Assembly (NCBI RefSeq): GCF_037113525.1
Contig: NZ_CP146963.1
Span: 3,757,226-3,789,225 of the forward strand
DNA from: Butyrivibrio fibrisolvens
GTDB taxonomy: Bacteria > Bacillota > Clostridia > Lachnospirales > Lachnospiraceae
Direction of reading: 5' to 3'
DNA length: 32,000 bases
A program made the position numbers and the translations under genes. Of this stretch, positions 3,129-28,806 are shown piece after piece. The notes under the pieces are model-generated. The model made no database searches. It saw nothing but the letters and a program-made list of their open reading frames with translations, and was not told where the DNA came from. Positions within the stretch are counted from its first letter, which is position 1; each line of letters starts with the position of its first letter.

Positions 3129-4784
3129 TTATCCGCCAAATGAAAATCCTGAACCGCCGCCATAATTTCCCTGCGGTGAATCATACTCTTGCTCAGACTG
3201 TGATTCATTACCCTGAGAATCAAATCCCTGTTGCGGCTGTGATTCATGTTCCGATTCTGAACCAGACTGACCAGGCATTCCAAAGCTATAACCCTGGTTG
3301 TTATCATCACCACTTGATGATGAGCCTGACAGCTCAGATGCATTATCAAGCGTTACTTCAATATCTACATACTGATACTGACCGTTAACTCTTCTAAGAA
3401 CAGTTACAGTAACTGTGTCTCCTTCTGCATAGTAAGACATAATACTTGTAAGGTCAGCTGCAGATGTTATGTCATTTCCATCAAAAGATGTTATAAGATC
3501 TCCTGCTTCAATTCCAGCCTTATCTGCTGCACTTCCTTCGCTTACTGCTGCAACATAGGCTCCGTCTATTCCTGTAGGAGTCATTACAGATACGCCCAAA
3601 GCACCTTTCTGCGCTTCCGCAACTGTAATCTTAGTATCTTCATTCATAAGATCATTGATAAGATCTATTACATCAGAAATTGGAATCGCAAATCCCATTC
3701 CTTCTACTGTTGTAGCACCAATCTTACTTGATGTAACTCCAATTACTTCACCTGCACTATTTAAAAGTGCTCCACCAGAGTTACCAGGGTTAATTGCTGC
3801 ATCTGTCTGTATGAAAGTATTGGTCTCGCCATCTTCTGTCTCTATCTCTCTACCAAGTGCACTGATAACACCCGTTGTAACTGACTGACCATAGCCAAGA
3901 GCATTACCAATAGCTATAGCACTCTCGCCAACTGTAAGTGAATTAGAATCACCAAGTGTAGCAATGCTTATAGAACTAAGCGTATCTTCAGAAAGATCCT
4001 CAAGCTCTACAGCAATCACAGCTATATCAACAGAAGATTCTGTTCCCTTAAGATACGCCGTAGCACTGCTACCATCTACAAATGAAACTTCCATGGAATT
4101 CGCATCTGCTATTACATGATTATTAGTAACAATGATAAGCTCCGTATCACTCTTAGCGATAATTATTCCAGATCCTGCTCCTTCAGACTCCTGCTGATAA
4201 GACTGCCCGAAGAAATCTGTTGTTGTAGTTGTAGCCTTTATATTTATAGATACGATCGAAGGCATTACAGAAGCCACAACACTGGTAACATCTGTCGTAA
4301 CGACCTGAGTATTACTTGTAGTCGTAACCTTGATCTCAGAATCCGACGAATCAGTATCTGTGTTAGTTGCAGCTATGCTATAAGAAGTATTTGACCCATC
4401 ATTAAGTGAAAGAGTTGTAAAATTCGAAGCTCCATAAATACCTGCTCCCGTACAAACTCCAAACACCGCTGCAAGCGCAAGTGCTCCTGCAATCTTTCCA
4501 GTCATCTTACCTTTTCTCTGCGCTTTTGCTTTCTTTCTCGCTTCTTTTTTAGCTGCTCTTCTGGCTTTTCTGTTTTCTTTCTTGATATCAGACTTTATAG
4601 TATTCGCATCATTTTCATTTTTATCACAATTAACTGCTTCATCAGTTACAGCATTTATCTTTTCATTAGCTACATCTTTTACATTCTCATTCGCAATATA
4701 ACTTACATCCTGCACATTCAATCCATCACCACTGTTCTGAACTGCATCATTATTAACATTTCTGAGGATTTCATCACCATTCAT
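3129..4784 (-). CDS. htrA: HtrA/DegP-family trypsin-like serine protease with PDZ domain, N-terminal membrane anchor and low-complexity tails
   Basis: Catalytic triad contexts are TNNHVI (His), DIAVIAV (Asp) and GNSGGALLN (Ser). A PDZ-like segment follows (GALGVSV...AGIEAGDLITSFDG). A TM helix IAGALALAAVFGVCTGAGIYG follows a Lys/Arg-rich stretch. The SD AAGAGG precedes the ATG. Confidence 0.9.
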   Translation of the reverse strand: MNGDEILRNVNNDAVQNSGDGLNVQDVSYIANENVKDVANEKINAVTDEAVNCDKNENDANTIKSDIKKENRKARRAAKKEARKKAKAQRKGKMTGKIAGALALAAVFGVCTGAGIYGASNFTTLSLNDGSNTSYSIAATNTDTDSSDSEIKVTTTSNTQVVTTDVTSVVASVMPSIVSINIKATTTTTDFFGQSYQQESEGAGSGIIIAKSDTELIIVTNNHVIADANSMEVSFVDGSSATAYLKGTESSVDIAVIAVELEDLSEDTLSSISIATLGDSNSLTVGESAIAIGNALGYGQSVTTGVISALGREIETEDGETNTFIQTDAAINPGNSGGALLNSAGEVIGVTSSKIGATTVEGMGFAIPISDVIDLINDLMNEDTKITVAEAQKGALGVSVMTPTGIDGAYVAAVSEGSAADKAGIEAGDLITSFDGNDITSAADLTSIMSYYAEGDTVTVTVLRRVNGQYQYVDIEVTLDNASELSGSSSSGDDNNQGYSFGMPGQSGSESEHESQPQQGFDSQGNESQSEQEYDSPQGNYGGGSGFSFGG

Positions 4785-4923
4785 CTCTCTACCTCTTTCC
4801 GAGCTTTTAAAGCTCTGTATGATTGATAATCTAACTTTTTAAACCTGTTTCATATTGCTCTATAGAACTCTTGCATCAAGCTTGCCTTTAGCTCTTGTGC
4901 TTTTATGGCTTTAGTTTAGATTT

Positions 4924-4967
4924 GAATTGTGATGAAATTGTGTTTTATTTATGCTCAAATTGTGTTT
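4924..4967 (-). promoter_or_regulatory. Three helically phased direct repeats (CACAATT on the gene strand) upstream of htrA
   Basis: On the + strand AATTGTG occurs at 4925-4931, 4936-4942 and 4958-4964, spaced 11 and 22 bp. The last two extend to an 11-mer AAATTGTGTTT (4935-4945 and 4957-4967). The repeats lie 140-180 nt upstream of the htrA ATG. Confidence 0.35.
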
Positions 4968-4977
4968 ACTTTCTTAT

Positions 4978-5023
4978 AAAAAAATAAAGCATTCCTTGAC
5001 TATTTATAAATCAAGAAATGCTT
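4978..5023 (-). terminator. Rho-independent terminator of the thyA-EAL-folA transcription unit
   Basis: On the minus strand, AAGCATTTCTTGA (5023-5011) pairs with TCAAGGAATGCTT (4999-4987) as a 13-bp stem with one U.G and an 11-nt loop. It is followed by TATTTTTTT (the + strand A-run at 4978-4984). Confidence 0.7.
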
Positions 5024-5092
5024 ATATCTACAACTTTTTCAACCGTTTAAAATAAACGTTTAGCTTTTTGATGGTTGTACGACAACTTAGGA

Positions 5093-5261
5093 TTCAAGAC
5101 TGTTATAAATATAATCATAGGCCGATTTTGAAAATAACCCGGATTTTTCTTAGTGTCTTTGGAGCGTAAGTACTGCGTGTTCACGGAAGCGGAAAAGACA
5201 CTTAGAAAAATCCGGGTTATTTTCACATGAGGCTTATGATTATATTTGTAACAGTCTTGAA
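5093..5261. repeat. 169-nt near-perfect inverted repeat (long hairpin) between the folA stop and its terminator
   Basis: Hand pairing uses a constant index sum of 10354. The outer stem pairs 5093-5123 with 5231-5261 (31 bp, two G.U-type positions on the + strand). A 5x5 internal loop follows. The inner stem pairs 5129-5160 with 5194-5225 (one T.T mismatch). The apical loop is 33 nt and GC-rich (5161-5193). Confidence 0.85.
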
Positions 5262-5303
5262 GGCACAGCCTACCCCATCAAAACCTACGCGTTTATTCGA
5301 CTC

Positions 5304-5807
5304 TTACTTGCGGATCCACCTCTGGAATGTGTAGCAGTTATCGAAGTAGTACTGTTCGTCGCTTTCTTCTGCAAGTTCCCACTCAGGATCTTTTTCAAGA
5401 TTAGGGAAGTATGCATCAGCTGTGAACTCCCTGTCAACCTTGGTAACAATACATGTATCCACATATGGAAGAAGCTGAGTATAAACGCTTGTGCCACCGA
5501 TAACATATACATCGTTGGTATCATACTCTGAAGCTATCTTCAGTACCTCTTCAATGCTCCTTGCCATGATAGCAGTTCCTGTAGAAGTACTCTTAACCGT
5601 ATAATCCGGATTTGCAGATAAGATGATATTGGTCCTTTGGTCAAGCGGAAGGCTGTTTGGGAATGTTGCAAGAGTCTTTCTTCCAAGTATTACAACCTTA
5701 TTCTTGGTCTCATTACGGAACATCTTGTGATCAGCCGGAATGCTGATAAGAAGATTACCGCCGTATCCTATTGCCCAGTTATTATCTACTGCAACTATTG
5801 CTTTCAT
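5304..5807 (-). CDS. folA: Dihydrofolate reductase
   Basis: 167 aa. Motifs IVAVDNNWAIGYGGNLL, VILGRKTLATFP and YVIGGTSVY are typical of DHFR. The SD AGAGGA lies upstream. Confidence 0.92.
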   Translation of the reverse strand: MKAIVAVDNNWAIGYGGNLLISIPADHKMFRNETKNKVVILGRKTLATFPNSLPLDQRTNIILSANPDYTVKSTSTGTAIMARSIEEVLKIASEYDTNDVYVIGGTSVYTQLLPYVDTCIVTKVDREFTADAYFPNLEKDPEWELAEESDEQYYFDNCYTFQRWIRK

Positions 5808-5836
5808 ATAAATGCTGTCCTCTTTTCTTTATATCT

Positions 5837-8347
5837 TCAGGCTCTTTTGCCAATATCCTCTACGCCGTTAGTGCTGATAAAATACTCTTTAAAGCTCTCA
5901 ACATCAAGCGGCTTGGAATAATAGTATCCTTGTATGGAATGACATCCAAGCTTTTTAAGTACCTGTACCTGATTTTCAGACTCTATGCCTTCTGCTACAA
6001 CGAATATACCGATTGTTGTAAACATGCGCATAAGAGCGCTGACCATCTGAAAACTCTTTTCATTATCAGGGAAGCCATGGGTAAAGATGCCTCTGTCGAT
6101 CTTGACTGTATCGAACTGGAGCCTTTGGATCGCAACAAGGTTGGAGTATGAACTTCCAAAATCATCCATGGATACTGTAGCACCAAGATCATGGATTCTG
6201 TCGATGATCTCGGCAATGTCATCTTCGTTATTGTAAGCCATGGACTCGGTTATTTCAAACTCAATCCACTGAATCGGAGGCTGGATCTCTCTTATAATCT
6301 TCTCATAGCTTTCAAAGTTCTCCGGATTCAGGATACTGTATTTAGAGATATTTACTGATATCCTGAAGGGTTCATTCCCTTCATCGATCCATTTCTTTAT
6401 AAAAAGGCAGGTCTCTCTGAACATAAAGAGATCAACCCTTGCTATCATACGGTTTCTTTCAAAAACAGGAATAAAGTATACAGGTCTTAAAATAGTTCCA
6501 TCATTTCTGCGCCATCTGACAAGAGACTCTGCTCCTGTAACTTTGCCTGTATGAGGATCAACTTTGGGCTGGAGGAAGAGCTCCATTTCTTTATTTGTAA
6601 GAGCCTTTTCAAGCCTGTTCTCCATAGTCTTCTCGACACGGAGCTTGTCTTTACACGTTTCAGTATACATCCAGCAGTCAGATGCAATGTCATAGGAAGC
6701 TGCTGAGTTTCTATAAGCTATTCTGGCAAGATCAAGGATTGCCTTAAAGTTCTCATCTCCTGCACTTATAGGGCATGCTGAAAACTCAACTCTTACAGAT
6801 AATGACTTAAAATTATCTCTAAGTACCTTTTCAAGGCCTTCTCTAAGCTGTGAGCACTTACGTCTAACTTCATTTGCCTTTTTGTCGCTCTTTATCAGCA
6901 TTGCAAAACTCGATTGGCCAAGTGCTGCCTGAGCTTCACCATCCACAAGAGTGGTCTGGTTCTGCTGATACAGTTCTTTTAACAATACATTTCCATTTTC
7001 CCAGCCGATGATCTCATTTACTGCCTTAAAACCGACAAGGTTCATGTACAAAAGCCAGTACTCGCCACGTTTTTCCTTATCTATCTCTGTAAACTTCTCG
7101 TTAAGATAAGCAAGTGAATTACCGCCTGTTACGGTATCGACATATGCCAGTTCTTTAAGCCTTCTGAGTGTCATCTCACCTCTTATCTCATGGAAAGATT
7201 TAAACAGCACGGTGAGGGTTATAGTCATAAGGAAAACGCTGTATCCAAGCCTGAAGTATTTTGAATTGCCTTCTATATAAACCATGCGATAACGAATGAC
7301 ACTATAACCGGAGACAATAATAAAGAAAAGAGTTCCGATTATCGATGCAAAGATATACATGTCTTTTGTCAGGATAAGCTCTCTTATCTGAAGTACCAGA
7401 AGTGTCAGGATCATGGCATACAAATAGATAAGAAACCCCACAAAGCTTACAGAAATATGCGATATCCCTGTCACATACAAAAATACTGAAACTGACATTA
7501 CAAAAAGATAAGTACACAAAAGAAACAGTGTGACTTTTTTCCCGCAATTTATATATTCAAGGAAAAACAGTAACAGAAAGATAGGAATGATCATGAAAAG
7601 AAATACTGCCATTGAATATCTGGCAGATACCGAACTGCTTATAAACTGAGGAAGATTTGATTCCATCAAAAGCCAGATTCCTGAAAATATAGATACAGCT
7701 GACATATAAGCTGCAGGAAGCTCCATGGACTCTATCTTAAATTTAAATAAATAGAACGAAAAAATAACCAGAATTATACCAACAACAATGAAAATAATTC
7801 CATTAAGAATAGCACTCATATTCTTAATGAAAATCTCATTATTAAGGTCATTGCGCTGTCCAAATATTGCGTAATTGAAGTAGAAACGAATGCTTCTTGA
7901 TGTAGGATTTGTCATTTCAAGAGTCAGGAACTTACCCGATGCAAACTTTGGAATATTTATCATGAACCAGGTATTTCCAATCTCTTTGCCCAGAACATCA
8001 TCCGTACCTTTGGCAAATTCTCCAAGGAAGGTGCCATTAGCATATATGGCAATATACATTTCGGGATCATATATTGCTATAGCTTCTTCAGGCGGGATAG
8101 AATACGGTAACTTATGATATAACCGAACCGATTCTCCGGGTCCGATCTCGATATATTCATCACTTATTACCTGGCCATCCGGATCATTCTGCCATCTCTC
8201 CGAGAAAAAATCCGAGTACTTATAATGCAAACGAAAAGAATCCACCGGGTCTAAAGATGCATAGATAAAGACTCCCGCGGTTAAAAGAATCAGGATTGAC
8301 GCTATAATCCTGGTTATTAAATACTTCGTTTTCAGAAATTCTTTCAT
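5837..8347 (-). CDS. Membrane sensor protein: N-terminal extracytoplasmic domain + about 7 TM helices (7TMR-DISM-like) + degenerate GGDEF + EAL (predicted c-di-GMP phosphodiesterase)
   Basis: EAL-domain residues are present: FLQPKVD, AESLVRW (EAL read as ESL), SVNIS, FEITE, DDFGSSYSNL, KIDRGIF, AEGIES and QGYYYSKP. The GGDEF-like domain has lost catalytic residues: GGDEF is replaced by GQSSF, DxD..FK by MNLVGFK, and NR by NS. About seven hydrophobic helices lie between aa 178 and 390. Confidence 0.88.
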   Translation of the reverse strand: MKEFLKTKYLITRIIASILILLTAGVFIYASLDPVDSFRLHYKYSDFFSERWQNDPDGQVISDEYIEIGPGESVRLYHKLPYSIPPEEAIAIYDPEMYIAIYANGTFLGEFAKGTDDVLGKEIGNTWFMINIPKFASGKFLTLEMTNPTSRSIRFYFNYAIFGQRNDLNNEIFIKNMSAILNGIIFIVVGIILVIFSFYLFKFKIESMELPAAYMSAVSIFSGIWLLMESNLPQFISSSVSARYSMAVFLFMIIPIFLLLFFLEYINCGKKVTLFLLCTYLFVMSVSVFLYVTGISHISVSFVGFLIYLYAMILTLLVLQIRELILTKDMYIFASIIGTLFFIIVSGYSVIRYRMVYIEGNSKYFRLGYSVFLMTITLTVLFKSFHEIRGEMTLRRLKELAYVDTVTGGNSLAYLNEKFTEIDKEKRGEYWLLYMNLVGFKAVNEIIGWENGNVLLKELYQQNQTTLVDGEAQAALGQSSFAMLIKSDKKANEVRRKCSQLREGLEKVLRDNFKSLSVRVEFSACPISAGDENFKAILDLARIAYRNSAASYDIASDCWMYTETCKDKLRVEKTMENRLEKALTNKEMELFLQPKVDPHTGKVTGAESLVRWRRNDGTILRPVYFIPVFERNRMIARVDLFMFRETCLFIKKWIDEGNEPFRISVNISKYSILNPENFESYEKIIREIQPPIQWIEFEITESMAYNNEDDIAEIIDRIHDLGATVSMDDFGSSYSNLVAIQRLQFDTVKIDRGIFTHGFPDNEKSFQMVSALMRMFTTIGIFVVAEGIESENQVQVLKKLGCHSIQGYYYSKPLDVESFKEYFISTNGVEDIGKRA

Positions 8348-8373
8348 TTACACTGTTTAAGACCAGCAAAATC

Positions 8374-9411
8374 TTAAATGGCAATCGGTATATCTTTAAA
8401 CTGGTCTCCTGCTACCTCATAATTTTCTACACTCACGTCATTCCTTGTAAAGTCATAAAAATCCTTGATATCCGGATTAAGGTGGAAAGTTGGTGCCGGA
8501 AGAGGCGTCCTTCCTATAAGTTCTTTGATATATGGAATATGCCTGTCATAGATATGGCAGTCTGCGATTACATGAAGAAGTTTGCCAACTTTCATATCAC
8601 ATACCTGTGCTAGCATATGCACAAGTGAAGAATACTGGACAATATTCCAGTTGTTTGCTGCAAGCATATCCTGAGAACGCTGATTTAGAACAGCGTTAAG
8701 AACAAGTCTTCCATCTGCCTTGTCCTGAGTCACGTTATAAGTCATGCTGTATGCACATGGTTCAAGATGCATATCAGAAAGTTCTGATACATTCCATGTG
8801 GTAGTCATGATACGGCGAGAGAATGGATTGATCTTAAGGTCATAGATAACCTTGTTCATCTGATCCATAACTGCTATCTTTGATTCTCTGTCAAAAACTA
8901 TGTCAGGCTCGCCAAGTCTTTCGTATGCATCAGTTCCTGGTACAAGACGCTCTTCCATAGAAGGGATACCAGGTCCAGGAACATATGAATACATTACCTT
9001 ATTTCCTTCGATTTCTTTTTTCCATGTAGGAAAAGCCTTATCGATTCCTTCTTCTGTAACGCCTTTATATGAATTCTTCTCTGCGATCTGCCAGCCATAA
9101 GCTTTGCCTATAGAGCCATTGTCATCAGCCCACTCATCCCAGATCGAACCTTTTAAATTTTTGATATTTGAAGATTTCTTCTGATATATCCAAAGTACTT
9201 CATCTGTAGCTGTCTTGATACCTGTCTTACGGAGAGTCATAAGTGGAAATTCTTTAGAAAGATCATAAGTATGTGCCTGACCGAAGATCTTGATCGTATA
9301 TGCAGATGCTCCATCCGGCCAATGTGGACGAACGGCCTGACCTTCTGTAGTAGTACCATTAGTCAGAATATCATTGCACATCTCAATAAAGTATTCATCA
9401 GCTTTAGACAT
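8374..9411 (-). CDS. thyA: Thymidylate synthase (ThyA type, long form)
   Basis: Motifs INPFSRRIMTTTWN, catalytic Cys context LEPCAY, NQRSQDM and IADCHIYDRH. The C-terminus DFYDFTRNDVSVENY resembles my recollection of Bacillus-type ThyA. The SD GGGGGA is 7 nt before the ATG. Confidence 0.92.
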   Translation of the reverse strand: MSKADEYFIEMCNDILTNGTTTEGQAVRPHWPDGASAYTIKIFGQAHTYDLSKEFPLMTLRKTGIKTATDEVLWIYQKKSSNIKNLKGSIWDEWADDNGSIGKAYGWQIAEKNSYKGVTEEGIDKAFPTWKKEIEGNKVMYSYVPGPGIPSMEERLVPGTDAYERLGEPDIVFDRESKIAVMDQMNKVIYDLKINPFSRRIMTTTWNVSELSDMHLEPCAYSMTYNVTQDKADGRLVLNAVLNQRSQDMLAANNWNIVQYSSLVHMLAQVCDMKVGKLLHVIADCHIYDRHIPYIKELIGRTPLPAPTFHLNPDIKDFYDFTRNDVSVENYEVAGDQFKDIPIAI

Positions 9412-9564
9412 AAAGAATCCCCCATAGAATCTAATACACTACCCAGTAAGGCGCGTATTGATAATTATTATAATCTATAATTTGGAAATATAATAAGCAA
9501 ATATTGCCTTTAACAAGTCAGTTTTAATCTTAATAAGAAACATAAACATTATAACAGATTATTT

Positions 9565-11169
9565 TCATCTGTCATACTTATCACAAAGTGCATTGATCTG
9601 ATCCGCAAACTTTGCTTTATCTTTGTTGCTTATGCCGCTGACTTTGCCAATAACTGCGATAAGTCTTGCACCTGCTGCCTTAAGTCTTGCATATACATCA
9701 GATACAGCTTCACCTGTCTTCTTCATAGCAGGAACAGGAACGCCTTCTTTATCAAACTGTCCCGAAATTAGATCAAATATGGTTCCGCTATACGGAGCAT
9801 AGGTATCATATCCAAATTCGTTTCTTAGATAACTTGCAAATGAAACTGTTACAGTATCTTCACCATGCACTATGAAAACTTTTTTAGGTCTTTTCTTAGT
9901 AAATCCGTTAAGCCATGCCACAAGTCCGTCTCTGTCCGCATGACCGGAAAGTCCTTCTATCTTAGTGATCTCGGCATTAACATCGATCTCTTCGCCAAAG
10001 ATCTTGACCCTCTCAGCACCGTCAAATATAGCTCTTCCAAGGGTTCCAATTGACTGATAACCAACAAAAAGAATGGTACTTTCGGGACGCCACAAATTGT
10101 GCTTAAGATGATGCTTGATACGGCCTGCATCACACATACCGGACGCTGCCAGGATTACTTTGGGCTTATCATCAAAGTTGATGGCTACAGATTCTTCCTG
10201 GGTTATTGAAAGTTTAAGTCCGCGGAAAGATATTGGATTTATGCCTTTTCTCACAAATTCAAGGGCTTCCTCGTCATAGCATGCATATTCATGGTCAGCA
10301 AAAAGCTGAGTAGCGCTTACCGCCATAGGACTGTCTACATATACATCAAAATCAGGAACTGCGGTTACAAGATGCTCTTCTTTGATCTGCCTTAAGAAAT
10401 ACAGCATTTCCTGGGTTCTTCCTATTGCAAAAGAAGGGATGACAACATTACCGCCCCTTTCAAATGTTCTGTTTAAAACCTCCGTAAGGTCCCTGACATA
10501 ATCAGGTCTCTCCGTCGTATGAAGTCTGTCGCCATAAGTAGACTCCATAACAACATAGTCCGCTTCTTCTGTATATTTAGGATCCTTGATAAGAGGCTGG
10601 CAGATATTACCTATATCTCCGGAAAAAACGATCTTGCGATCCTGCCCTTTTTCCGAAAGCCATACTTCTATACTGGAGCTTCCAAGAAGGTGGCCGATAT
10701 CTGTAAATCTGATCTTGATCCCATCACAGATATCAATTATCTCATCATACTCACATGCCACAAACTGCCTGATCGCACCCTCAGCATCTTCCATAGTATA
10801 AAGAGGTTCTGCTCCTTCAAGCCTGCTGTTACGCTTAGCCTTCCTCTTCTTCCATTCAGATTCCTGCATCTGGATATGAGCACAGTCTCTAAGCATTATA
10901 TCGCACAGATCTGCCGTAGCGTCTGTAGCATAGATCTTGCCCCTGAAACCATTGGCATAAAGTGAAGGAATAAGTCCGCTGTGATCAACATGAGCATGTG
11001 TAAGAAATACATAATCAATAAGAGCAGGTGCAACAGGAAGCGGTGCATTCTCAAATATATTGCGTCCCTGCTCCATACCATAATCAACAAGAATCGTCTT
11101 ACCACAAGCCTGCAGACAATGACAACTTCCTGTAACTTCGTGATCAGCACCTATAAATGTCAGTTTCAT
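9565..11169 (-). CDS. MBL-fold metallo-hydrolase of the beta-CASP (RNase J / CPSF-like) RNA-metabolising family
   Basis: HAHVDHSG (the HxHxDH motif) near the N-terminus. The length and order of segments (MBL, beta-CASP insert, C-terminal GHAD.. motif SGHADRDGL) fit beta-CASP nucleases. Strong SD AAGGAGGGA. Confidence 0.85.
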   Translation of the reverse strand: MKLTFIGADHEVTGSCHCLQACGKTILVDYGMEQGRNIFENAPLPVAPALIDYVFLTHAHVDHSGLIPSLYANGFRGKIYATDATADLCDIMLRDCAHIQMQESEWKKRKAKRNSRLEGAEPLYTMEDAEGAIRQFVACEYDEIIDICDGIKIRFTDIGHLLGSSSIEVWLSEKGQDRKIVFSGDIGNICQPLIKDPKYTEEADYVVMESTYGDRLHTTERPDYVRDLTEVLNRTFERGGNVVIPSFAIGRTQEMLYFLRQIKEEHLVTAVPDFDVYVDSPMAVSATQLFADHEYACYDEEALEFVRKGINPISFRGLKLSITQEESVAINFDDKPKVILAASGMCDAGRIKHHLKHNLWRPESTILFVGYQSIGTLGRAIFDGAERVKIFGEEIDVNAEITKIEGLSGHADRDGLVAWLNGFTKKRPKKVFIVHGEDTVTVSFASYLRNEFGYDTYAPYSGTIFDLISGQFDKEGVPVPAMKKTGEAVSDVYARLKAAGARLIAVIGKVSGISNKDKAKFADQINALCDKYDR

Positions 11170-12118: not shown

Positions 12119-12191
12119 GCGATAGTGGCGTAGTTGGTAACGCGCGACCTTGCCAAGGTCGAGACCGCGGGTTCGAGCCCCGTCTATCGCT
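12119..12191 (+). tRNA. tRNA-Gly (anticodon GCC), CCA not encoded
   Basis: Hand-folded cloverleaf of 73 nt. Acceptor GCGATAG/CTATCGC; D arm GCGT-AGTTGGTA-ACGC; anticodon arm CGACC-TTGCCAA-GGTCG (anticodon GCC); 5-nt variable loop; T arm GCGGG-TTCGAGC-CCCGT; discriminator T. Confidence 0.93.
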
Positions 12192-19570: not shown

Positions 19571-21349
19571 TCACCTTACAACTACTTTATTTCTTCCGGT
19601 TTCTTTTGCTTCATAAAGTGCTTCATCAATTCTCTTAAAGACGCTATCTACACTGTCTTTATCTTTGACCATGGTAAGGCCTATGCTAATTGTAATATGC
19701 CCAACTTCTCCGAATTCCATCTGTGCCACACCCTCACGCATCGCTTCACAGAATTCTTTGGCTTCTTCAAATGACAAATTTGGTTTTATTCCTACAAATT
19801 CTTCGCCACCCCATCTTCCGATAACATCTGCCTGATTGAAGAGATACTTAACCTGTCCTACACCATCTCTTAAGACCATATCTCCTGCATCATGACCATA
19901 GGTATCATTTACCCGCTTAAAATGGTCAACATCAACCATCATAACAGCAATATTCTGGTATCTGCTTCTGTTTTCCAGGAACTTGTTCATAAAGTAATTA
20001 AGTGCTCTTCTGTTATAGATCTGTGTAAGCTCATCAAGACTGGCCACCTTAAATAGCTGTTCATTAGCTTCTCTTAAATCTAAAGTCGTAGATTCAAGGA
20101 AATTTACAAGACGGGTCGATAGTGGCAGGAATCCATCTTCTGAATTCTTCACATCGCTGCACATATATTTACTGTCAAAATGATATACAGGACGATCTTT
20201 TTCTTCAGGGACAGGTCCTTCTCTCATTCCAACAACTACGCAGGATGCGTTTAAAAATCCTCTCATACCATCCGCATGAAGTATTTCTCCATAGCCACTT
20301 GCCCATGTAGATGATGAAAGAACGTGCTCATAAAAATCAAACTCAAGATCTGCCATGGCATCGCCCATAAGCATTCTTCTGCTCATGCAGGCATAGACAA
20401 GAATAGCCTGTGGGTAAAATTCTGAAAGCTTTACAGCATTTTGTCCCGACTCAGAAAGAAGCATATCTGTAGTTGAATAACTCAAACTTACAGAACTTCC
20501 CTGCGGAATCTGAGTTGCAAAGCACAAAGCTCCATCATCACGGTATTCAAGAGCTACTCTTGCAAGAGGTATTCCATTGTCTTTTAGGAAGAAAGGAAAA
20601 GAACTGGTATTTTCAAAAAAGTACTCGTTCATGCCAATTCCAAGATGTTCCTGATATACAGAAAACGCAGGTTTATTGTTTATCTCATAAACAATGCCTT
20701 TATCATCTGACTTTGTCACAACAAGTTCTTTACCAAGAGATTTGAATCCAAGATTATAATAATAGTCCAGGTTCAGGTCCTCGCCGCAAAAAGCTACAGC
20801 CAGGATTCCCCTGTTATATATCTTTTGCCCGACATATATCTTAGACCTGTCATCGCCCATTTTGTGGGTTCCTGCGAGGGCTCCAAACATGACTATATCT
20901 TTGTCATAACCTGCAACCCTGTCAATAAATGTTTCAGGGCACAGATCAAAAGCAGAAGACATCATCAGGATGCCTTTAAGATCTTTTTTGTCTTTAAGAA
21001 GCTTAACGTACTTTTCGCCTGCATCATACGTAGATAGTCCTGCAGAACAGTCGAATACATCAATACTAAAATATGCTTTGTCAAAAAATATAACGCAGCA
21101 TACAACAACTTCAACAGAATGATTTTCACGGCTCAGAGCTCCATGATTGGTCATTCCAAACACTGACAGGCCGGGAAGATTTTCGCATAGCGTATCAAGG
21201 TCTTTTTGGATCAAATCTGAGTCATTACTAGGCTCAATAAGCTGCAAAAGACCTTTTTTACCATTAACATATTCCGGAGAATTTTTGATCTTATCTATCA
21301 TCTCCGACATGCTAAGTCTGTCATCAAGAACGTAACGATGCTGGATCAT
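19571..21349 (-). CDS. FIST-domain sensor fused to a GGDEF diguanylate cyclase
   Basis: The C-terminus carries an intact GGDEF domain (NRRALN, VDVDHFKRVNDTYGHDAGD, RWGGEEF). The roughly 400-aa N-terminal region has the layout I associate with FIST_N/FIST_C; that part of the call is from recollection. The SD AAGAGGTAAG lies upstream. Confidence 0.85.
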   Translation of the reverse strand: MIQHRYVLDDRLSMSEMIDKIKNSPEYVNGKKGLLQLIEPSNDSDLIQKDLDTLCENLPGLSVFGMTNHGALSRENHSVEVVVCCVIFFDKAYFSIDVFDCSAGLSTYDAGEKYVKLLKDKKDLKGILMMSSAFDLCPETFIDRVAGYDKDIVMFGALAGTHKMGDDRSKIYVGQKIYNRGILAVAFCGEDLNLDYYYNLGFKSLGKELVVTKSDDKGIVYEINNKPAFSVYQEHLGIGMNEYFFENTSSFPFFLKDNGIPLARVALEYRDDGALCFATQIPQGSSVSLSYSTTDMLLSESGQNAVKLSEFYPQAILVYACMSRRMLMGDAMADLEFDFYEHVLSSSTWASGYGEILHADGMRGFLNASCVVVGMREGPVPEEKDRPVYHFDSKYMCSDVKNSEDGFLPLSTRLVNFLESTTLDLREANEQLFKVASLDELTQIYNRRALNYFMNKFLENRSRYQNIAVMMVDVDHFKRVNDTYGHDAGDMVLRDGVGQVKYLFNQADVIGRWGGEEFVGIKPNLSFEEAKEFCEAMREGVAQMEFGEVGHITISIGLTMVKDKDSVDSVFKRIDEALYEAKETGRNKVVVR

Positions 21350-27231: not shown

Positions 27232-28086
27232 TTATTTTAGTAGTCTCTCTGCTGCCTCAACTACGTGGCTTACAAGTACTGCTGTTGTAACTGATCCTAC
27301 GCCGCCAGGAACAGGTGTAAGCTTTTCTACAACGCTTTCCACTTCGTCAGACTTTACATCACCAACAAGCTTTTGTTTTTCTTCGCTGTAGTTAATTCCA
27401 ACGTCGATGACTGTCTGGCCGTTTTCAAAATACTCAGCATTAAGCATTTCTGCTTTTCCAAGTGCCGCAATTACTATATCGGCATTTTTAGTAACTTTCG
27501 CCATATTTTCAGTTCTTGAATGGCATATTGTTACTGTGGCGTTTGCATTCATAAGAAGCATCGATACAGGCTTTCCGATAACAAGGCTTCTTCCTACTAC
27601 TGTAGCTTTTTTACCCTTAGGGTCGATTTCGTAATACTTTAATATCTCCATAACTGCCTGAGATGTGCAGGGTGCAAAGCCTTCTCCAAGACCGCTGTAG
27701 ATATAAGCCATAGAGCCAGGTGTTATGCCGTCAACATCTTTGGATGGAAGAATCGCATTGCATGCTGCCTTCTCATCTAGAGTTTTAGGAAGTGGGCGGA
27801 ACATTAGTATTCCATGAACGTTGTCATCTTCATTAAGCTCTTTGATCGCAGCCATGAGATCTTCCTGAGAGCAATCTTCCGGAAGCACTTTATTTACAAC
27901 TGCTACTCCGTCTTTTTCACATCTTTTTGTTGCACCGCGTTCGTAAGACAGGTCGTCCTGCCTTTCACCAACTCTAAGAATTGCAAGTGTCGGGGTTATA
28001 CCCTTTTCCTTTAGTGCATCTGCCCTTTTTAATGTAACTTCATCAAGTGAGTCTGCAACGGGCTTTCCTTTTAATAATTCTGCCAT
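27232..28086 (-). CDS. folD: Bifunctional methylenetetrahydrofolate dehydrogenase / methenyltetrahydrofolate cyclohydrolase
   Basis: Motifs PTLAILRVGERQDDLSYERG, VVGRSLVIGKPVSMLL and TPVPGGVGSVTTAVL. The ATG at 28086 (MAELLKG...) with the SD GGAGAG is preferred over the track start at 28098. Confidence 0.95.
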   Translation of the reverse strand: MAELLKGKPVADSLDEVTLKRADALKEKGITPTLAILRVGERQDDLSYERGATKRCEKDGVAVVNKVLPEDCSQEDLMAAIKELNEDDNVHGILMFRPLPKTLDEKAACNAILPSKDVDGITPGSMAYIYSGLGEGFAPCTSQAVMEILKYYEIDPKGKKATVVGRSLVIGKPVSMLLMNANATVTICHSRTENMAKVTKNADIVIAALGKAEMLNAEYFENGQTVIDVGINYSEEKQKLVGDVKSDEVESVVEKLTPVPGGVGSVTTAVLVSHVVEAAERLLK

Positions 28087-28179
28087 AAAACTCTCCATTT
28101 CTGAGGTGTTGTCAAATATGTTTTTATCCGTTTTATCAGAAAATAACCACTCTGCTTTTATTTATAAATCAATCTTATA

Positions 28180-28806
28180 TTACTTTCTAAGCTTTGCGTT
28201 GACATCGTCAAATACATTCTGAGCTCTAGCAACATATTCATCTAAAATGCTGTCAGCTTCCTGCTCAAAGCTATCTGCCTTATCCCTATCCTGTAAAGAT
28301 TTAGTATTTATAAATACGTTGAGACTCGCGCTCTTAAGGGCTGCACCAGCAAGAGCTGCGCCGCATCCAACGTCGGATATCATGATGACAGAGCCGATTT
28401 CCTTCATGCGCTCTAAAAGCTCTATTACTCTTTTTATCTGTCTCATCATTTCAAGAGGAGGGGCGATTGCATCAAGGGTAGCCTTCTCAAGCTTTTCTAC
28501 TCTCTGCGGATCTTCTTTTGGTATACTGTAAGCTACTGAGAGAGGCTCGAACATCTTTGCATCCTCTTCTACAAGGTCAAGAAGTCTTGTTCTTATATCT
28601 TCTGCCTCTTTTAATATAGCCTGAAGCTCTTCTTCGTACTGAGCATATTTTTTCTTACCGGTAGTAAAGTTGCCTGCCATAGAGCAAAGAGCCATAGACA
28701 GTGCTCCAACAAGTGCTGCAGCGCCTCCACCTCCAGGCACTGAAACCTTGGCAGCAAGCTTACCTGCAAATTCGTTACAGCTGTAATCAGTGATCTTATT
28801 ATCCAA
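28180..28806 (-). CDS. fchA: Cyclodeaminase/cyclohydrolase family protein (methenyl-THF cyclohydrolase / formimidoyl-THF cyclodeaminase-like)
   Basis: The N-terminal VPGGGGAAALVGALSMAL motif and the all-helical 208-aa size are typical of FchA/FTCD-C family proteins. It lies directly upstream of folD. The start is TTG with a strong SD GGGAGG 7 nt upstream. Confidence 0.82.
   Translation of the reverse strand: MDNKITDYSCNEFAGKLAAKVSVPGGGGAAALVGALSMALCSMAGNFTTGKKKYAQYEEELQAILKEAEDIRTRLLDLVEEDAKMFEPLSVAYSIPKEDPQRVEKLEKATLDAIAPPLEMMRQIKRVIELLERMKEIGSVIMISDVGCGAALAGAALKSASLNVFINTKSLQDRDKADSFEQEADSILDEYVARAQNVFDDVNAKLRK

Follow-up and report, generated by a model that had tools for sequence, protein, structure and literature searches.

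In the 32,000-nt stretch of Butyrivibrio fibrisolvens DNA analysed here (the window), a gene for an otherwise ordinary membrane signalling protein, pde, lies between the thymidylate synthase and dihydrofolate reductase genes, and this odd gene order is real and is conserved within a small set of Butyrivibrio-like bacteria from rumen and gut. The account that we favour, with moderate confidence, is that a phosphodiesterase of the 7TMR-DISM kind was inserted once, in the ancestor of this clade, and is now an operon member. All three open reading frames are on the minus strand, as are the features described below unless stated otherwise, and an ORF check upheld the coordinates, the co-orientation and the gaps of 26 and 29 nt given in the original prediction. 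Pfam matches likewise supported the proposed gene identities: thyA (8374-9411) encodes a 345-aa thymidylate synthase (PF00303, Thymidylat_synt, 1.3e-78, 264 bits), pde (5837-8347) an 836-aa membrane receptor and predicted c-di-GMP phosphodiesterase with EAL and weak GGDEF matches, and folA (5304-5807) a 167-aa dihydrofolate reductase (PF00186, DHFR_1, 5.8e-39) that is 71-100% identical across the clade. The unit has a promoter-like region only 5' of thyA and a terminator-like site only after folA, and the adjacency of these two genes is interrupted by pde, whose GC and GC3 contents resemble those of the neighbouring genes, with no compositional anomaly.

Adjacency of thyA and folA, expected from general knowledge of Firmicutes, proved to be the rule in Clostridia, where thyA is directly followed by folA, 3-150 nt apart, at about 135 other loci. 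Gene order and orientation of thyA and folA in the window match those of this canonical thyA-folA (thyA-dfrA) operon, from which the locus differs by the inserted 2.5-kb signalling gene and by a 62-aa insert in ThyA. The upstream neighbour of thyA, a beta-CASP gene, is also shared with related Lachnospiraceae (L015-17, L019, L023-26), which have beta-CASP - thyA - folA without pde. The synteny comparison agreed with the earlier view that a signalling gene embedded at this site is unusual, and showed it to be lineage-specific and conserved in relatives: thyA-pde-folA is present in 7/7 lineages examined (ThyA 77-99% identical) and in none of the approximately 135 other loci, and beta-CASP - thyA - pde - folA was found on every contig for P0003, P0005, P0006 and P0007 as well as in L012 and L095-L100. 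Because the arrangement recurs in every relative whose ThyA is at least 77% identical, it is not due to chance, and the direct thyA-folA loci, including those of Lachnospiraceae with the same upstream gene, indicate one ancestral insertion, by which pde apparently entered the locus before the members of a small Butyrivibrio-like clade diverged. The closest out-group homologues of the sensor (P0122, P0123) are not adjacent to thyA or folA. In an Anaerovoracaceae metagenome-assembled genome (L056), two BspA-LRR genes unrelated to pde fill the same site, which therefore tolerates unrelated cargo.

The product of pde is predicted to be a receptor of the 7TMR-DISM kind whose c-di-GMP phosphodiesterase activity is gated by a signal. 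All lineages share its N-terminal region, including invariant R13, A16, F27 and A30, and this conservation argues for a start at the ATG at 8347; the region contains a transmembrane helix (8258-8314, about aa 12-30; helix 2-32 in the AF2 model). This is followed by an extracytoplasmic beta-sandwich sensor (7823-8257, about aa 31-175) with nine strands in AF2 models, for which the top domain-level Foldseek match in two separate searches was the periplasmic (7TMR-DISMED2) domain of RetS (3jyb/2xbz, prob 0.97-1.00), a modest fold match (TMt 0.42-0.47, model pLDDT 69-75); the next matches were jelly-rolls of BcsB, beta-glucuronidase, CBM35 and GH156. Neither the window protein nor any of 60 relatives has a Pfam DISMED match. 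Next, ahead of the cytoplasmic output domains, the AF2 model places a seven-helix membrane module (7178-7822, about aa 176-390; helices 177-202, 206-229, 240-265, 270-292, 298-327, 330-355 and 362-400), which is accompanied by a conserved EIRGE linker helix, and rhodopsins, GPCRs and TMEM87A among the Foldseek matches speak for a 7TM bundle. Against PF07695 (7TMR-DISM_7TM), the window protein reaches only 7.3 bits (E 5.6; cut-off 29), in an alignment covering 4-199/205 of the model; this Pfam family is matched by 23/60 family representatives at E<=0.01 (best 4.8e-08), and a 70% identical fragment (P0121) has a precomputed match. The sensor module belongs to a family of 1349 representative clusters at E<=1e-3, whose members are about 825 aa long when the output is GGDEF-EAL and about 560 aa when it is GGDEF only. 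The sensor most likely binds a glycan or some other molecule outside the cell or in the envelope. The suggestion of a thymidine- or folate-related cue for the sensor was not borne out, given its extracytoplasmic location, the RetS and jelly-roll folds, and out-group homologues located away from thyA and folA; we do not favour this reading in view of an outward-facing, glycan-binding-like sensor from a large paralogous family with GGDEF or GGDEF-EAL outputs.

Selection for the position of pde is possible, as the insertion has been kept in all seven lineages while the folA-htrA spacer has gained and lost genes. In L001 this spacer holds a YgjP-like gene, in L003 an MCP gene and in the window a MITE-like palindromic insertion of about 200 nt (5103-5303, no strand assigned) directly 3' of the folA stop, in the presumed 3' UTR. 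The two 68-nt arms of the palindrome (5093-5160 and 5194-5261) are 90% complementary, the RNA fold energy is -100 kcal/mol (z = -12.8), and the insertion is present in L095 and absent from L097 (same species) and L006. In addition, the pde-folA gap has been compacted to 0 nt in L003 and 4 nt in L001, with the folA Shine-Dalgarno (SD) site inside the 3' end of pde in both. The ThyA insert (aa 116-177) is clade-specific: clade members conserve it, whereas the ThyA proteins of other Lachnospiraceae lack it (68-69% identity outside the insert). It occurs together with pde throughout the clade; the closest solved structure, B. subtilis ThyA 1b02, is matched in two pieces around it, and C219 (PCAYS) and the phosphate-binding pair R199/R200 are invariant. 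These features would fit a selected coupling in which c-di-GMP breakdown (motile, non-attached state) is made to follow growth and DNA-precursor synthesis through the common transcript, or in which thymidylate or folate status affects the activity of the enzyme; the ThyA insert might co-evolve with the phosphodiesterase. We nevertheless consider such coupling unlikely, because a single origin in a narrow clade means that conservation may reflect inheritance, the extracytoplasmic sensor is similar to carbohydrate-binding folds, and the nearest homologues occur in unrelated contexts, with LRR genes at the same site elsewhere. Moreover, pde is lacking in L101, whose ThyA has a shorter version of the insert, and in L102 and L113 (ThyA of 324 and 328 aa, extra residues unmapped). 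A census review of c-di-GMP sensory inputs mentions neither folate nor thymidine (PMC8846402), and we found no paper linking thyA or folA to c-di-GMP.

The preferred reading, an inserted gene that has become part of the operon, is consistent with the junctions. The 26-nt thyA-pde junction (8348-8373), compared using sequences from six lineages, carries a conserved motif, CTGGTCTTAAACA, and a GGAGG-like element is absent from it in 5/6 of them; the lack of an SD site 5' of the pde ATG, pointed out in the original prediction, holds and is conserved in the clade. The 29-nt pde-folA junction (5808-5836) carries the folA SD site (AGAGGA, 5823-5818). As anticipated, a consensus scan detected no terminator-like site at either junction and a single one after folA (4978-5023), where a hairpin (5023-4987) with a 15-bp stem is followed by TATTTTTTTA, the T-run extending to about 4978; this T-run and the sequence further downstream are invariant in four lineages. 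The scan also returned two weak terminator-like hairpins within the pde ORF (8312-8291 and 7715-7694) and none between the beta-CASP gene and thyA. The region upstream of thyA (9412-9575) has candidate promoters and a strong SD site (GGGGGA). The best sigma-70-like match there (9575-9548, ATGACA-16-TATAAT, TG-extended, 11/12) is common only to the window and its closest relative, L012, and a TATAAT box (9472-9467) and the thyA SD site are conserved in 5/6 lineages. Co-transcription of thyA, pde and folA, as earlier proposed, is likely, since the junctions are compact and the folA SD site lies within the pde frame in L003 and L001, where gaps of 0-4 nt leave no space for intergenic signals. It is quite unlikely that the position of pde is accidental, with folA driven by promoters inside pde or its 3' end and pde regulated separately. 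Internal promoters in the 2.5-kb pde ORF are conceivable, as promoter-like hexamer pairs do occur on its coding strand, e.g. at 6258-6230 (10/12) and 5945-5918 (9/12), and the longer junctions of L009 (77 and 100 nt) offer room for regulatory elements, but the total of promoter-like matches (17) equals the chance expectation (17.0 +/- 3.8 in shuffles), and the 29-nt gap contains no evident promoter for the essential folA.

The cytoplasmic half of the protein combines a degenerate GGDEF domain with an intact EAL domain. The former (6710-7147, aa 401-546; PF00990, 33.9 bits vs cut-off 23.8, 3.2e-08) is degenerate, as first described, with GQSSF (aa 477-481) replacing the GGDEF motif and NLV (aa 436-438) replacing the metal-binding DLD in the alignment to MorA 4rnh, so that the protein is not a cyclase. 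No inhibitory RxxD site is present five residues ahead of the motif, the preceding sequence being GEAQAALGQSSF. The EAL domain (5909-6619, aa 577-813; PF00563, 213.9 bits vs cut-off 31.3, 2.7e-63) spans the full model (2-236/236), and alignment to MorA 4rnh and MucR 5m3c assigns it every catalytic and metal-binding residue: E607 (ESL), R611, N666, E698/E701 (EITE), D728/D729 (DDFG), K749 (KID), E786/E789 (EGIE) and Q806 (QGY). All pde domains are under purifying selection across the clade (dN/dS 0.03-0.19), including the GGDEF domain (0.08-0.10), with EAL the most constrained part of the protein (0.03-0.06). These data point to c-di-GMP phosphodiesterase activity of the pde product, and we propose that the dead GGDEF domain is kept as a regulatory or dimerization module. 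That the protein acts mainly as a c-di-GMP receptor or scaffold like LapD, or has an N-terminal role independent of c-di-GMP, as the essential N-terminal domains of RgsP do (PMC6107284), would be in line with the degenerate GGDEF domain and an N-terminal half that is an intact ORF in all lineages but is very improbable given the complete and constrained EAL site and a score of 108 bits against the NCBIfam LapD model (cut-off 1020).

Several known systems share part of this architecture. MorA and MucR of Pseudomonas aeruginosa, the best sequence matches to the cytoplasmic half (9e-45 and 4e-42, both domains), are tandem GGDEF-EAL proteins with identical EAL catalytic residues, whereas they have an active GGDEF motif, retain the metal-binding Asp lost here, and carry other sensor modules. 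In PdeA (CC3396) of Caulobacter crescentus, a degenerate GGDEF domain that keeps a GEDEF motif binds GTP and activates the EAL domain; the window protein has the same pairing but has lost both the motif and the Asp ligands, so that activation by GTP should not be presumed for it. RetS, LadS and NicD of P. aeruginosa are 7TMR-DISM sensors that share the layout of an ectodomain followed by 7TM but have histidine kinase or GGDEF outputs, and although two models of the ectodomain both matched the RetS sensor domain best, sequence similarity was undetectable (12-13% identity), a PDB profile search gave 0 matches and TM-scores were <0.5. RgsP (SMc00074) of Sinorhizobium meliloti is a 7TMR-DISM GGDEF-EAL phosphodiesterase with an active EAL domain that accumulates in growing cells and has an essential role in cell-wall growth (PMC6107284). 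It resembles the pde product in having an outside globular sensor, seven transmembrane helices, GGDEF and EAL, but it has a PAS domain and DISMED2 and 7TM regions recognizable by Pfam, neither of the latter two reaching threshold in the window protein, which has an extra N-terminal transmembrane helix; phylum and genomic context also differ. In terms of gene order, the tmk-pstA operon of Listeria, Enterococcus and Staphylococcus joins thymidylate kinase to a c-di-AMP receptor (bioRxiv 10.1101/2020.08.21.261750) and thus also places a thymidylate-pathway gene and a cyclic-dinucleotide signalling protein in one operon, but it involves c-di-AMP, another enzyme and a receptor rather than a phosphodiesterase, and is widely conserved, whereas thyA-pde-folA occurs in one clade. 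The thyA-pde-folA unit could be a selected regulatory design that keeps c-di-GMP low, and cells motile and unattached, only during DNA-precursor synthesis, and in which the ThyA insert might make contact with the phosphodiesterase or regulate it; this is a long shot, but if true, it would be the c-di-GMP counterpart of the link from thymidine starvation to c-di-AMP in other Firmicutes.

In our favoured account, a pre-existing beta-CASP - thyA - folA arrangement would have received pde in the clade ancestor. The gene would now be transcribed from the thyA promoter region and, with no SD site present, translated weakly, and folA translation would be driven by its own SD site or coupled to that of pde; the conserved terminator 3' of folA would end the transcript. 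The connection to the thymidylate/folate cycle would then be shared, growth-linked transcription and not ligand sensing or enzymology. We infer phosphodiesterase activity, co-transcription, low pde translation and the nature of the ligand from sequence, and find no support for a link from signalling to DNA-precursor synthesis beyond what is probably one shared transcript. Together, the present evidence suggests that a strongly conserved housekeeping operon can take up and retain a signalling gene unrelated to it, and that thyA-pde-folA marks a small Butyrivibrio clade in which weak translation, through the missing SD site, may allow a housekeeping transcript to supply a membrane receptor at low abundance. 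If physiologically meaningful, the shared transcript would be the first case of c-di-GMP turnover wired to thymidylate/folate metabolism and would be relevant to antifolate responses and to how rumen fibre-degrading Butyrivibrio balance swimming against attachment during growth.

The three genes considered here lie on the minus strand and comprise thyA (8374-9411, 345 aa; Pfam Thymidylat_synt, 1.3e-78), a gene we call pde (5837-8347, 836 aa; Pfam EAL, 2.7e-63, with a weak GGDEF match, 3.2e-08), and folA (5304-5807, 167 aa; Pfam DHFR_1, 5.8e-39), with spacers of 26 nt between thyA and pde and 29 nt between pde and folA. The original prediction had described them as co-oriented and closely spaced, with no terminator at the junctions, one terminator after folA, and no Shine-Dalgarno (SD) sequence before the EAL gene, and this description is accurate, since ORF coordinates, Pfam matches, gaps, SD sequences, and the terminator scan all agree with it. 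The consensus scan gave no terminator-like site at the thyA-pde or pde-folA junction and one 3' of folA (5023-4987), followed by a T-run; pde has no SD, and folA has AGAGGA at 5823-5818.

The arrangement is restricted to a small Butyrivibrio-like clade. Every contig carrying one of the pde protein clusters P0003, P0005, P0006, or P0007 shows the order beta-CASP RNase, thyA, pde, folA, a variable stretch, and htrA. Scanning species-representative genomes with ThyA as the seed gave 80 loci, among which pde occurs only in L012, an uncultured Butyrivibrio MAG with a 96% identical ThyA, and folA directly follows thyA in about 70 other Clostridia loci; several Lachnospiraceae (L015-17, L019, and L023-26) have beta-CASP, thyA, and folA in this order without pde. 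On metagenome contigs, the same type of scan found 70 loci with both genes, separated by 3-141 nt in 65 and by pde in the remaining five, all with a ThyA at least 88% identical; pde is also present in L099 (ThyA 77%), a locus truncated before folA. The closest out-group homologues (P0122 and P0123, N-terminal half 25-27% identical) adjoin neither thyA nor folA. Because pde is confined to the clade, thyA and folA are adjacent elsewhere, and out-group homologues lie in other contexts, we conclude from these comparisons that pde was most probably inserted once, in the ancestor of the clade, which is represented here by seven lineages. The insertion is thus lineage-specific and kept throughout the clade, a point that the original prediction had left to synteny in relatives. 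In the most distant lineage, L001, flanking housekeeping proteins are 71-77% identical, the C-terminal half of the pde protein 62%, and its sensor half only 33%. Recent horizontal transfer of pde was rejected, as its GC (0.387) and GC3 (0.398) lie within the range of neighboring genes and all clade members carry it. Over 5304-11169 of the window, synonymous divergence from L012 forms a mosaic (0.11 in the beta-CASP gene, 0.33 in thyA, and 0.7-1.1 in pde and folA), a pattern suggesting that recombination had a breakpoint in thyA or close to it. Insertions separating thyA from folA are uncommon, but this clade does not have the only one: in the Anaerovoracaceae MAG L056, two BspA-type leucine-rich-repeat genes (6841-8558) occupy the same site in the operon through an independent insertion of unrelated genes.

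Such a stable position might reflect selected functional coupling of pde to thymidylate and folate metabolism. Retention of pde across the whole clade while the adjacent spacer turns over, the compacted junctions, the co-inheritance of an insert in ThyA, and the precedent of a link between thymidine and c-di-AMP speak for it. However, the insertion has a single origin, the sensor is predicted to face outward, pde homologues sit in other contexts, unrelated cargo occupies the same site elsewhere, and literature on thyA/folA or Butyrivibrio with c-di-GMP yielded neither such a link nor a description of thyA-pde-folA, making coupling unlikely. The outward-facing sensor and the contexts of the homologues likewise leave the earlier suggestion of a thymidine- or folate-related cue unsupported. 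The ThyA insert itself spans 62 aa (aa 116-177; window 8881-9066), occurs clade-wide, and does not occur in other Clostridia ThyA proteins (276-282 aa); a metagenomic ThyA, L101 (68% identical, 329 aa), has a shorter version with no folA nearby, and Pfam and PHROG searches asking whether L101 is phage gave no matches for its neighbors.

Upstream of thyA, a TATAAT box (9472-9467) and a GGGGGA SD are common to five of six lineages, and the top-scoring promoter-like site of the window (9575-9548) is found elsewhere only in L012. Apart from L009, where it is 77 nt long, the thyA-pde junction measures 25-37 nt (five lineages); it contains a conserved CTGGTCTTAAACA-like motif and has no SD in five of the six. 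Between pde and folA, the gap is 100 nt at its longest and falls to 4 nt in L001 and 0 nt in L003, and in both of these the folA SD (GGGAGGG and GGGGA) sits within the pde coding sequence; this argues for an operon, as the folA mRNA of these two lineages would have to include the pde 3' end. Co-transcription of the three genes, as first proposed, is therefore a reasonable idea as far as junction anatomy goes. Independent expression from promoters inside pde could draw on the 17 promoter-like matches there, but 17.0 +/- 3.8 are expected, that is, chance frequency, and we regard this possibility as quite improbable. The beginning of the pde ORF contains a weak terminator-like hairpin (CCAGGATT...AATCCTG; 8291-8312, pde nt 36-57) followed by an interrupted T-tract, which is conserved in the window, L012, L009, and L006 (with a G-U-compatible change in L006) and not in L003 or L001. 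It was not accepted as a terminator (8312-8291) because it lies within a conserved TM-coding stretch and its T-tract is interrupted; it could serve attenuation of pde or be a by-product of conserved TM-helix codons.

Right after the folA stop codon, a palindromic element of ~200 nt (5103-5303; arms 5093-5160 and 5194-5261) has 68-nt arms that are 90% complementary and an RNA fold energy of -100 kcal/mol (z = -12.8). L095 carries it, L097 (same species) and L006 lack it, and L012 has a partial copy; it resembles a mobile insertion of the MITE type, and TAA may be its duplicated target. At gathering score, Rfam matched only a tRNA (12119-12191); sensitive mode over 4700-9700 added two sub-threshold matches, to 6S (24 bits versus 46) and a miRNA, for both of which the palindrome hairpin accounts, and a riboswitch or known RNA in the thyA leader, junctions, or 3' UTR was rejected. 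In four lineages the sequence is almost invariant in the T-run that follows folA and for some 130 nt beyond it. This stretch between the folA terminator and htrA (4860-4990) contains repeated ACACAATTT / CACAATTC motifs and may bind a regulator or act as the promoter of the gene for the HtrA-like protease (3129-4784).

The cytoplasmic half of the pde protein is closest to MorA (4rnh, 9e-45) and MucR (5m3c). In this alignment, the EAL catalytic and metal-binding residues are all kept (E607 in an ESL motif, R611, N666, E698/E701, D728/D729, K749, E786/E789, and Q806), whereas the GGDEF motif reads GQSSF and the DxD metal ligands NLV, in agreement with the degenerate GGDEF first noted. The protein, for which no NCBIfam equivalog attains its cut-off, thus has the residues of an EAL enzyme and lacks those of a cyclase, and is predicted to be a phosphodiesterase whose cyclase domain is dead; acting chiefly as a non-enzymatic receptor or scaffold, in the manner of LapD or RgsP, would fit the dead GGDEF but, with the EAL residues intact, is very improbable. 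Pairwise dN/dS against five relatives is low in every domain (ectodomain 0.05-0.15, 7TM module 0.13-0.19, GGDEF 0.08-0.10, and EAL 0.03-0.06; the neighboring thyA, folA, and beta-CASP genes have 0.004-0.08), indicating that the whole protein, degenerate GGDEF included, is functional.

For the sensor half, a PDB sequence-profile search gave no matches, so fold comparison was the sole informative route. The AlphaFold model of residues 1-401 (pLDDT 75, pTM 0.72) comprises an N-terminal TM helix, a nine-strand beta-sandwich (~50-165), and seven more TM helices leading into a long linker helix, a layout that predicts N-in, C-in topology with the beta-sandwich outside the cell. Its best Foldseek matches are TMEM87A (luminal domain plus 7TM), the periplasmic sensor domain of RetS (3jyb/2xbz; prob 0.99-1.00), rhodopsins and GPCRs, and glycosidase sugar-binding jelly-rolls; the ectodomain modeled alone again gave RetS first (prob 0.97-0.98, TM 0.41-0.45), then BcsB, GH156, and CBM35. 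As these scores are modest, a DISMED2-like ectodomain is likely but unproven. One 797-aa NCBI record in the protein's 90%-identity cluster has its start called 39 codons downstream (window 8231-8347); the conservation of residues 1-39 and the TM helix that they are predicted to form support the ATG at 8347 as the probable start.

A word-index search with the protein found only seven full-length clusters (100-47% identity), the rest matching the GGDEF-EAL half alone, and with the N-terminal half a single fragment; the family was therefore seen only by an exhaustive profile search of the N-terminal 401 residues, which gave 1349 representative clusters at E<=1e-3 and 425 at E<=1e-10, with a steep score fall from 718 bits for the clade's own representative to 208 for the next match. 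Members group near 825 aa and near 560 aa and are, by Pfam, sensor-GGDEF-EAL and sensor-GGDEF proteins, those named being from Lachnospiraceae and Bacillus. Among 60 representatives, 23 matched 7TMR-DISM_7TM at E<=0.01 and none the DISMED models; the pde protein itself may be a 7TMR-DISM receptor, but it falls below the Pfam thresholds for formal membership.

Elsewhere in the window, a second c-di-GMP gene ~10 kb from pde (19571-21349, minus strand) encodes a FIST-N/FIST-C/GGDEF protein (GGDEF 7e-39), presumably an active diguanylate cyclase. Further one-carbon/folate genes, unlinked to the thyA operon, encode FolD (methylene-THF dehydrogenase/cyclohydrolase, 27232-28098) and an FTCD_C cyclodeaminase-like protein (28180-28806), both on the minus strand. 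The conserved beta-CASP metallo-beta-lactamase RNase gene upstream of thyA (9565-11169, minus strand) has type VII CRISPR Cas14 as its best NCBIfam match, far short of the cut-off (404 bits versus 800); it is an aCPSF1/RNase J-like gene with a housekeeping role, and its synteny with thyA extends across Lachnospiraceae.

Taken as a predicted phosphodiesterase, the pde protein would work like RgsP/MorA-type membrane phosphodiesterases with a RetS-like sensor layout. The ectodomain would bind a ligand outside the cell or in the envelope, for which the beta-sandwich fold makes a glycan the likeliest candidate; the signal would pass through the 7TM bundle and the conserved EIRGE linker helix, and the GGDEF-EAL tandem would then alter its rate of c-di-GMP hydrolysis. 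The gene would be expressed from the growth-linked thyA-folA transcript, and the absent SD would keep the protein scarce. Given the 1349 clusters of its sensor family, the pde protein is a single orthologue group in a large and already known type of c-di-GMP receptor. The novelty lies only in the operon arrangement, in which a very conserved operon takes a form specific to one lineage.
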